Shown one piece after another: positions 27,001 to 30,000 of a DNA stretch of 64,000 nt. The DNA comes from a virus (Duplodnaviria; Heunggongvirae; Uroviricota; Caudoviricetes). A program made the position numbers. The stretch is from the IMG/VR virus record IMGVR_UViG_2877962823_000010, one strand, 5' to 3'. The stretch's first letter is position 1, and every line of letters begins with the position of its first letter.

Positions 27001-30000
27001 TACATGGTGACGAAGAACAGAGATGTGCTACTGAGAGAGGCGGCACGGCTTGACCAGTCGAGTTTCGTAGTTCAGCGGGCCAGACCAATGCTGAAAAGCC
27101 TGCGGGCAAGGCAATTCGAATTCTAAAACCAAAGGAGCTTCGGCTCCTTTTTTCATGCCTGAAGGAAAGGAAAATGGCAGATATCATCGACAACGCCGCT
27201 GAAATCGAAGAATTGCAGCGCAATCTCTCCCTGCAAAAATACAAATCCGATAGTAATGCCCCATCTGCTACTCATTGTTGCGAGTGTGGCGATCCGATAG
27301 ATGAGCGGCGACGCCTGGCTGTTCGTGGATGCAGAGCTTGCGCCAGTTGCCAGCAGGATATTGAACTTATCAACAAACAGAGAGGTGTGAAGTGAACATC
27401 AACACCACGATAACGATCGATACAGCCCTGAACACCGGCCTAGCGCTCCTTGGTTATTTCTACATCATGTTCTGCAGCGGACGATGGCTGTCACTGTTGT
27501 TCATGAAAAAATGGAATAAACGCCGTAAGCAGGAGCAACGCCAAAAGGCAATAGATGCATTTTTCGAAGCCTTCGGTATTGACGGCATGGAACCAGGGGA
27601 TCCAGCTCGCGCAATTAGCAGAGGGGGCGTAGTAATCCTTGTATACCGGAGTGAAGAGAAAAATGAGCAAGATTGACTATCAGGCACTGCGTGAAAAGGC
27701 AGAGAAAGCAACTAAAGGAAGCTACATCGTAGGGCATACATCTGTTAACCAGCACGGCAATTTAACAGGAGTTTTTGTTTGCCAAAAATGGAAAGGAGAA
27801 CCCGGTGGCGTGATTGCAGAATGTCATGTTAACTGCCTGGTTGAAACAGATGCTCAGGCTTATGCAACGCTGAATTCATAGCAGAGGCTAACCCGGCTAC
27901 CGTGCTGGAACTGCTGGATGAACGGGAAAGAAACCAGCAATACATCAAACGCCGCGACCAGGAGAACGAGGAGATTGCGCTTACGGTTGGGAAGCTGAGA
28001 GTTGAGCTGGGAGCAGCAGAGAACAACCTTATTGATAGTGAATGCCATGTTGCTGAACTGGAAGAAGCGCTACGCGATAAGCAGGCGTTACTTGAAGCAT
28101 CAGAGAAGCGCATAGCAGAACTGGAAGCCGAACTCGTAAGCCAAACTTACAAGTTGCCACACACGCAGTTTGAACAGATTGCTAACCTCTACGAAATGCA
28201 ATTTGATGACGGTCGCACTTGTGCCTTTCACACTGATGCGCAAAAGGCTGAGCAATGGCTTCAGGCGTGCGACGGAAACAGGGTTCAGGAATACGTTAAG
28301 CTGGAACGGTTGCAGAATGCGCTGTCTGGCAACTCTCCGGTAACTCCGGATGGTTGGATAAGTTGTAGTGAGCGAATGCCGGATACCAAAACAGCCGTTC
28401 TTGTTGCCGTGGAGTTTGACAGGAAAGGTGACTGGCGAATGAAGTGGGCGACTTACATCCCGGGGCATCCTGACGCTAATGATGGGTGGATAATTCCTGG
28501 TGCGTCGTGGAAACCGTCACACTGGATGCCGCTACCAGAACCGCCGCAGGAGGTGAACTGATGGAAAATGAAGGCGATAATATCATCACACTGGTGCAGC
28601 CAAAGCGCGATGAAGAGAAGCTGCTGAACATTACAGTAACTGGCAGAAAAAACTACACACAACAGAGCTGTAAGCATCGGGCCATTGAGGTTCATGAACA
28701 GGATCACGTTATCCTGTGCTTGCAGTGCGGATGTGTTGTGGACCCTTTTCAGTATGTTCTGCGGTGTGCGAACGATGGTGAGGCTGTGGTGAGAGAGATT
28801 AGACAGCTTCATAACAGACACGATCAGCTCCGAGAATCTGTTGCCAGCCTCGAGCGTGAAGAAAAGAACACCAAAGCACGGTTGCGGGCAGCAAGAACTG
28901 CAATACTGTATGCGGAAAATGACCTTAAAAATATTGAGCAGAAGGTGAATCAATGACCTGGCCTGAAGCATTCGCAAATGTAGGAACAGTAATGGCGGTG
29001 GTGCTGGTTGTGTATTCGATTTGTCGCTGGAGATAAAAACGGTTTGCGGGAAAAGGAGAGTTAAGTAGAATTGCTGCGGGTGCTTGAGGCTATCTGCCTC
29101 GGGCATGAACACCAACGGCAGATAGAGAAAAGCCCCAGTTAACATTACGCGTCCGGCAAGACGCTTAACATTAATCTGAGGCTCAATCCATGCTGAACAC
29201 ATGTAGGTTAGCCTCTTACGTGCCGAAAGGCAAGGAGAAGCAGGCTATGAAGCAGCAAAAGGCGATGTTAATCGCCCTGATCGTCATCTGTTTAACCGTC
29301 ATAGTGACGGCACTGGTAACGAGGAAAGACCTCTGCGAGGTGCGAATCCGAACCGGTCAGACGGAGGTCGCTGTCTTCGTAGACTACGAATCTGAGAAGT
29401 AAGAGACCAAGCGGGGGAGTAATCTCCCGCCACCTCTGATGTGTCAGGCATCCTCAACGCACCCGCGCTTTACCATACTGAAAATGCTGTTTGAATGTTC
29501 ATCTCTGAAAGAGGACTATGAATGAAAAAGGTATTGATTGCAGCACTTATTTCTGGTGTGTCTTTTGGCGCTTTTGCACAGCAGGGCGGTTTCCAAGGGC
29601 CTGAAGCAGAGCGTTCAACAGTAGCGCAGGCAAAAGAACTGAAGGATGATGCATGGGTTATCCTTGAAGGGAGCATCGTTAAAAAAGTGGGTGATGAACG
29701 TTATGAGTTTCGTGACAATAGCGGGACAATTGTCACGGATATCGATGACAGCATATGGGCCGGTCAGAATGTTTCTCCGAAAGACAAAGTAAGAATTGAG
29801 GGTGAAATTGATAAAGACCTGAGCAGTGTTGAAGTGGATGTAAAGGCACTGAAATTATTAAAGTAACCGTCCCAGCTTGCTAAGCCCGTCTTACTGACGG
29901 GTTTTCTGTTTGTTATCACAGTATTTTTCAACAAAACACCGAATCTTATCCGGTGCGCTGTAAAACCCCGTCCTTCAGGGCGTGGAGGATGTCAAATGGC

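Follow-up and report, generated by a model that had tools for sequence, protein, structure and literature searches.

An open reading frame at positions 29247..29402 of the plus strand (ATG 29247, TAA 29400..29402) in the 64,000-nucleotide stretch of viral DNA analysed here, hereafter the window, encodes the 51-aa protein MKQQKAMLIALIVICLTVIVTALVTRKDLCEVRIRTGQTEVAVFVDYESEK. The sequence-only reading of this DNA had proposed a Hok/Gef-family toxin at exactly these coordinates, and the proposal was borne out: the product matches the Pfam profile HOK_GEF (PF01848) with an E value of 4.3e-23 and 81.1 bits (cut-off 22), and the match covers all 42 of the 42 profile positions. The near-identity to hokD/relF that had been proposed is also real, 47 of the 51 residues (92%) being identical to those of K-12 HokD/RelF (taken from NC_000913.3), with all four differences falling within the last 7 residues. 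In an alignment of seven Hok proteins, which took in HokD, HokC, HokB, an IncF Hok and FlmA, the Hok-invariant columns C15, T17, L29, E31, E40 and A42 are intact, and an inactivating change, which the sequence-only reading had thought worth looking for, is absent from the conserved Hok residues. Residues 6-24 are, by reading of the sequence, uniformly hydrophobic. The toxicity of the identical gene, hokW, is known (PMC8621323).

The hokW gene is preceded by a Shine-Dalgarno sequence AAGGAG (29232..29237, +), found by direct reading, and CAAGGAGAAG is invariant across all hok loci that were aligned. In the list of open reading frames hokW is contained, in frame, in a longer frame of 70 codons, mokW (29190..29402, +), the product of which (70 aa) is annotated as mokW in phage 933W and as 'MokC' in Sakai (ECs_1245). 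Its ATG at 29190 follows a GAGG located 8 nt upstream, and the in-frame arrangement is the same in mokC of K-12 and in the IncF mok.

The hokW mRNA and its antisense RNA

The leader of the hok/mok mRNA was delimited at 29078..29252 (+) by a search with the Rfam covariance model RF01794, called 'sok', a check that had been suggested from sequence and that gave a full-length match (model positions 1-157) with 113.5 bits, above the gathering score of 59, and an E value of 4.8e-25. The possibility that this match is the antisense RNA itself was considered and rejected since the match lies on the plus strand, just as in K-12 the model falls on the strand of hokC and hokB, opposite the annotated sokC and sokB. 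The model thus describes the leader of the hok mRNA, and the real antisense RNA is encoded by the opposite strand within the limits of the match. The match begins with the first nucleotide of the tac element GGGUGCUUGAGG (29078..29089, +), which pairs with the fbi element; we infer from this position that the hokW mRNA starts near 29078. A putative promoter for this mRNA is present at 29043..29071 (+), with a weak -35 element TTTGCG (29043..29048), a 17-nt spacer and a -10 element TAGAAT (29066..29071), the latter aligning with TATAAT of hokC, TAGGAT of hokB and TATGAT of the IncF hok at an equal distance from the conserved 5' GGGUGC.

Within the leader, a Sok-target hairpin at 29178..29215 (+; -13.4 kcal/mol, z -2.6) is formed by a helix that is also present in the Rfam consensus alignment. 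The hairpin holds the mok Shine-Dalgarno sequence GAGG (29178..29181) and the mok AUG (29190..29192), and its 7-nt loop CUGAACA (29193..29199) is complementary to the 5' end of the antisense RNA, SokW. The CUGA of this loop presumably corresponds to the YUNR U-turn motif of the R1 system, the consensus of which it fits.

At the opposite end of the message, the fbi element CCUCAACGCACCC (29452..29464, +) was located by minimum free energy (MFE) folding and by a duplex calculation. In the predicted fold of the full-length RNA (29078..29470; -158.8 kcal/mol, z -5.8) the tac and fbi ends are paired, the tac/fbi duplex is calculated at -21.5 kcal/mol, and compensatory tac/fbi changes are seen in hokB and in the IncF hok/flmA loci. 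The GC-rich 3' stem-loop that had been noticed in the sequence by eye appears in both MFE folds, of the full-length and of the truncated RNA, as GCGGGGGA-GUAA-UCUCCCGC (29411..29430, +), with 8 bp and a GUAA loop; it is conserved in the related loci of mEp460, Rac and PPompW with stem changes on both arms. Removal of the 3' end in silico alters the predicted fold at the 5' end of the hokW RNA. Two shorter hokW RNAs, the nature of which was left unexplained, were seen experimentally (PMC8621323).

The spacer between fbi and the downstream BOF/YgiW-like gene (29465..29521, +) is free of a recognizable intrinsic terminator: none was reported after fbi by a scan of 28900..29600 or, within 120 nt 3' of fbi, by a strict terminator finder, and the 95 nt that follow fbi are predicted to be no more stably folded than shuffled sequence (z +1.2). 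The strict finder overlooked terminators with long loops that can be recognized by eye in the IncF loci, and its results were accordingly used just for the contrast between hokW and its hokD-type relatives. The first terminator of the plus strand is at 29882..29904, 3' of the BOF/YgiW-like gene. Since a terminator after fbi is missing, hokW may be co-transcribed with the BOF/YgiW-like gene, and its primary transcript and 3' processing may differ from those of the R1 model.

A Sok-like antisense RNA had been expected on the minus strand at about 29150..29250. The RNA itself is real, being annotated in the 933W record and seen on northern blots (PMC8621323), but the coordinates were off: conversion of the misc_RNA sokW of AF125520.1 into window positions places the 71-nt SokW at 29128..29198 (-), and the guessed span overlaps this RNA plus its promoter. 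SokW consists of a 14-nt single-stranded 5' tail (29198..29185), a long interrupted hairpin (29184..29130) and a U-tract; its predicted fold has an energy of -31.5 kcal/mol (z -5.2), it covers the mok Shine-Dalgarno sequence and AUG, and the northern probe YO-592 of PMC8621323 maps to 29169..29198. The sokW promoter at 29204..29233 (-) has a -35 element TTGCCT (29233..29228), which sits opposite the hok Shine-Dalgarno sequence, a 17-nt spacer and a -10 element TAACCT (29210..29205). The -10 element was placed from the positions (29204, 29205, 29208 and 29210) changed by YO-421, the primer used in PMC8621323 for the promoter-less mutant, in which protection against HokW was lost, and the position of the promoter is conserved in the alignment of other hok loci. 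A consensus promoter/terminator scan of 28900..29600 reported no hok promoter, no sok promoter and no terminator because the hexamers of both promoters are below the threshold of the tool and the stem and U-run of the Sok terminator are interrupted; the promoters were placed by the mutagenesis primers of PMC8621323 and by cross-locus alignment.

The hairpin of SokW is 18 nt longer than that of hokC and of the Rfam consensus, which accounts for a length of 71 nt versus the 59 nt annotated for sokC of K-12, where the insertion is absent. The idea that it is peculiar to hokW was rejected, since it recurs in mEp460, in Rac and in a P1-like phage. Among the intact hokD-type loci only PPompW is without the extension, which can thus be regarded as a trait of the subfamily.

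Prophage context and the role of the module

A match to the window is found in the chromosome of E. coli strain 111, where the prophage is present in tandem: positions 1..6572 are repeated at 57430..64000, so that the prophage unit is 57,429 bp long. The int gene (24621..25931, +) is followed by the 7-bp core TTGAAAC (25953..25959), to which the cores of both attL and attR of 933W map, making it an attP-type junction. Positions 26192..26198, obtained as the 933W attR core with one fixed offset, were rejected by BLAST on account of a 31-bp repeat difference. After the att core there follow, all on the plus strand, an antirepressor-like gene, a TraR-like gene, a DUF4752 gene, an Ea22-like gene and a hypothetical gene, then hokW, and downstream of it the BOF/YgiW-like gene and the giant LPD38 gene, which encodes a polyvalent LPD protein. 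The locus thus sits in the att-proximal accessory arm of the prophage, just downstream of int across the junction of the tandem, and its earlier description as lying downstream of int is correct for the window; in single lysogens, of which Sakai is one, int and hokW lie at opposite ends of the prophage. The prophage in the window appears to be without the Q-tRNA-stx segment. The window has a second hok-like locus, near lom (41990..42351, -), with a 46-aa open reading frame; an antisense RNA of this locus, if there is one, would be expected opposite 42210..42300. A literature search for this second locus gave nothing.

Positions 29050..29500 of the window (451 nt), which contain the whole locus, are 100% identical to many O157:H7 chromosomes, including Sakai with its prophage Sp5 (ECs_1245) and EDL933, and to 44 phage records, mostly of Stx-converting phages, including 933W. 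The neighbours in 933W and Sp5 are also the same (the Ea22-like and hypothetical genes upstream, the BOF/YgiW-like and giant LPD38 genes downstream) and only the wider context differs: in the window the tandem arrangement brings int and an attP-type junction into the region immediately upstream, unlike in 933W and Sp5, and the Q-tRNA-stx segment appears to be missing. The locus is, therefore, a known one and a textbook hok/mok/sok module, annotated since the 933W genome of 1999 (mokW, hokW and the misc_RNA sokW in AF125520.1, Plunkett et al. 1999) and functionally characterised in 2021.

The functional results apply to the sequence of the window because all 16 of the 16 testable oligonucleotide sequences of that study (Takada et al. 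2021, PMC8621323) map onto it exactly. It was shown there that arabinose-induced HokW arrests growth and that SokW protects from its own promoter, partially so in trans, in a manner partly dependent on RNase III and Hfq. Northern blots revealed SokW in Sp5 lysogens; upon mitomycin C treatment it was quickly lost while the hokW mRNA persisted, and HokW-3FLAG appeared in a RecA-dependent way and localised to the inner membrane. Deletion of hokW-sokW delayed the growth arrest by about 40 min and halved phage release after induction, and had no growth phenotype without induction (PMC8621323). The role of hokW in lysis and release comes from this one paper, from Sp5 lysogens and from effects that are roughly 2-fold.

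With high probability, the locus represents the type I toxin-antitoxin module hokW/mokW/sokW of a lambdoid prophage of the 933W/Sp5 type and works in the following way. A stable mRNA from near 29078 would carry mokW and the in-frame hokW and, at full length, would be closed by its 5' tac paired to its 3' fbi. The unstable 71-nt SokW would be transcribed in the opposite direction, from a promoter of its own; its single-stranded 5' tail would pair with the loop of the target hairpin and then cover the mok Shine-Dalgarno sequence and start codon, which would block the translation of mok and, via translational coupling, that of hok, and the SokW/mRNA duplex would be a substrate of RNase III. Once SokW is gone, HokW would be made, inserted into the inner membrane via its N-terminal hydrophobic helix, and the membrane would be damaged. 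In this scheme, we infer the mok-hok coupling, the tac/fbi switch, the activation by 3' processing and the recognition of the loop by the SokW tail from what is known of the family and from computed folds.

The regulatory architecture of the locus is the same as that of the R1-type loci, and post-segregational killing is the mode of action of hok/sok on plasmid R1 and the established role of R1/F-type hok loci on plasmids. By analogy, the main role of hokW might be prophage maintenance, with cured cells keeping the stable hokW mRNA, losing SokW and dying. The 933W record itself carries the note 'prophage maintenance', and the persistence of the hokW mRNA past the disappearance of SokW (PMC8621323) is what such a role would call for; however, the deletion of the locus was without effect on growth of uninduced lysogens, and the sole measured phenotype concerns induction and release, so that we consider maintenance a possible but rather unlikely main role. 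It is compatible with the explanation of the locus as a hokW/mokW/sokW module. We find it still less likely that the module serves mainly to defend the lysogen by abortive infection, in which an infecting phage would stop host transcription, SokW would decay and HokW would kill the cell. The location in the accessory arm beside the genes for the antirepressor-like, BOF/YgiW and polyvalent LPD proteins would suit such a function and there is a precedent in the action of R1 hok/sok against T4, but the protection given by R1 hok/sok was modest and depended on a high-copy plasmid (both cited in PMC8621323). Finally, hokW could be seen as the inactive remnant of a module, decayed in the way of K-12 hokD/relF, from which the original promoter, mok and sok have gone. 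This idea draws on the 92% identity of the toxin to HokD and on the label 'RelF inactive antibacterial toxin protein' given to it in some phage records, but has almost no chance of being right, as the locus retains a complete leader, mok, tac and fbi as well as the promoter and the RNA of sok, the Rfam model matches hokW and not K-12 hokD, and the toxicity and antitoxin activity demonstrated for the identical sequence (PMC8621323) refute it.

hokW among the known hok loci

The DNA homology of hokD (relF), which resides in the Qin prophage of K-12, to hokW extends only from the hok Shine-Dalgarno sequence through the 3' hairpin and fbi, and hokD is without tac, the target hairpin, the mok start and the sok gene and promoter, all of which hokW has, because relE sequence abuts its hok Shine-Dalgarno sequence. 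Consistent with this, RF01794 gives no match in K-12 hokD. On the other hand, K-12 hokD keeps, in addition to fbi, a terminator behind it, which hokW lacks. Judged by sequence comparison, hokW is the intact form relative to K-12 hokD. The description of the locus as a HokD/RelF-like type I toxin gene with a hok-type mRNA structure is therefore supported by the family match, the leader and the antisense RNA, and what needs correction, besides the coordinates of SokW, is the name: the locus already bears the names hokW, mokW and sokW and, unlike K-12 hokD, has kept the whole regulatory leader.

Intact hokD-type loci with a leader, mok/hok and fbi are also present in the lambdoid mEp460, Rac of strain 442/2 and PPompW and in the P1-like Ro157c2, at 86-94% DNA identity. 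Those of mEp460, Rac and PPompW, like that of Qin in K-12, are located in the nin region, upstream of rem and Q, whereas hokW is att-proximal; the context of the P1-like hokD-type copy is unrelated. Immediately after fbi, mEp460, Rac and PPompW have a terminator of the form CCCGC-TTCG-GCGGG-T5, as K-12 hokD has one, and in the P1-like copy there is just a short hairpin that is not followed by a U-run. The homology of hokW to its relatives ends exactly where their post-fbi terminator begins.

The hokC(gef)/mokC/sokC locus of K-12 has a toxin with 80% identity, a homologous leader and an in-frame mok. The K-12 Sok overlaps the first 9 nt of mokC exactly as SokW overlaps mokW, and the 3' end of K-12 hokC, including fbi, is disrupted beside IS186. 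The hok/mok/sok (parB) of R1 and the F-type flmA have the same order of elements as hokW (tac, the target hairpin, the in-frame mok, hok, fbi and the antisense Sok), match the Rfam model with 79-87 bits and carry compensatory tac/fbi changes, and their toxins are about 41-44% identical to HokW (44% in PMC8621323).

Location of the locus and the loss of SokW on induction

Why SokW is lost on induction was left unexplained in PMC8621323 and in a later review. In the window, the pL-N-...-xis-int operon and hokW share one orientation and are about 3.3 kb apart, hokW being the downstream one; only att separates them, and there is no convincing intrinsic terminator between the xis-int operon and hokW. 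It is conceivable, if rather speculative, that the position of the locus itself triggers the RecA-dependent loss of SokW, through N-antiterminated read-through from pL across attP into the hok region that titrates SokW or disturbs its promoter. After excision and circularisation of the prophage, leftward N-antiterminated transcription would cross attP into the hok region; in the tandem prophage of the window, the read-through would need no excision. SokW could be titrated by such transcripts, as they contain the Sok target, and polymerases arriving from pL would run into the sok promoter, which is convergent. Such read-through would resemble that of the lambda b-region genes. RNA-seq of EDL933 treated with ciprofloxacin shows the Ea22-like gene, located two genes upstream of hokW, up 43.5-fold, an increase for which amplification of the genome could be a sufficient explanation, and the product of the neighbouring gene is up 6.9-fold at the protein level. 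The list of differentially expressed genes from the ciprofloxacin treatment does not include hokW, the BOF gene or the two att-proximal genes.

The layout of the locus (its co-orientation with int, its proximity to att, the absence of a terminator after fbi and the tandem attP) thus offers one concrete hypothesis for the loss of SokW. The interest of hokW is that it is a hok/sok module carried by a functional prophage and aiding the phage, with lysis brought forward and progeny release raised about 2-fold, rather than stabilising a plasmid.

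A second hok-family locus in the same prophage

Besides hokW, the 51-aa Hok/Gef toxin gene at 29247..29402 (+), the same prophage carries a second, divergent hok-family locus on the minus strand (41990..42351), flanked by lom and a homologue of L0129. Its 46-aa ORF (42062..42202) matches Pfam HOK_GEF (4e-08) and is annotated as Hok/Gef by PGAP, and the part of the locus at 42189..42351 gives a below-threshold match to the Rfam hok-leader model (35.6 bits, E 3.7e-06). In the predicted fold of the locus RNA (z -6.8), a 5' GGGUGCC is paired with a 3' GGCACCC, a modeled pairing that resembles that of tac and fbi, the 5' and 3' elements of hok mRNAs that pair over a long range. 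An in-frame mok, the overlapping upstream ORF of hok, is ruled out at this locus because a stop codon is found in frame 18 nt 5' of the ATG. The locus is left without annotation in the record of the Shiga-toxin phage 933W, and our literature search on it found no paper.

Genes on either side of hokW

The gene following hokW (29522..29866, +) encodes an OB-fold protein of the BOF/YgiW/YdeI family (Pfam BOF, 5.1e-33), which appears to have a signal peptide. It starts 120 nt past the hokW stop, and no terminator is present between the two genes. Convergent with this hokW-BOF unit is a giant minus-strand ORF of 2806 aa (30417..38837), a homologue of 933W L0134 with LPD38, LPD5, LPD1 and MuF_C domains, which is a 'large polyvalent protein', a type that is probably co-injected with phage DNA. 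The unit and the giant ORF are separated by back-to-back terminators at 29882..29904 (+) and 29956..29936 (-).

The Ea22-like gene located 5' of hokW (27664..28561) is, according to PGAP, frameshifted in the window strain, where it corresponds to ORFs 27639..27881 and 27902..28561, whereas in E. coli O157:H7 strain EDL933 it is intact and 900 bp long. A 453-bp segment of this gene is 95.8% identical to the Ea22-like gene of the pL operon (21082..21534), which lies on the opposite side of att.

The tandem prophage and its att junction

The prophage is 933W/Sp5-like and present in tandem, and the window is longer than one of its units: positions 1..6572 are repeated at 57430..64000 with 99.98% identity and a period of 57,429 bp. 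The two units are joined by an attP-type junction, at which the cores of 933W attL and attR coincide (25953..25959). The junction of int, att and the right arm is present in only four records of the E. coli collection, two of which are separate records of 50-63 kb and are possibly circular phage forms. Just inside the right arm and adjoining att is a cluster of GCCCCAA(A) repeats (26079..26134), 31 bp longer in the window than in the 933W record; these repeats may be arm-type recombinase-binding sites.

Farther along, a promoter-like site (TTGACA-18-CATACT) occupies 26249..26278, and a match to sRNA-Xcc1 (Rfam RF02221; 26368..26456, +; 69.1 bits against a gathering score of 53) lies in intergenic DNA, with the att core on one side and an antirepressor-like gene (26497) on the other.

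IS1203 copies and stx status

Two sets of Rfam matches are expected for this phage type. One, at 8597..8795 (-), comprises the C4 antisense RNA together with its a1/b1 targets and isrK, and lies upstream of an ORF6N antirepressor gene that is truncated; the other is the lambda cIII thermoregulator, located where cIII starts (18004..18062, +). Two copies of the IS3-family element IS1203 (6892..8201 and 45927..47236) are 99.9% identical, and each contains an ALIL frameshift pseudoknot. The latter copy interrupts a gene of the tail region. The former has the truncated ORF6N gene on one side and a DUF6645 gene, likewise truncated, on the other, and it takes the place occupied in 933W by Q, three tRNA genes and stx2AB. 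Since neither a tRNA gene nor an annotated Q or stx gene occurs in the 64,000 nt of the window, the prophage looks like an stx-negative derivative.
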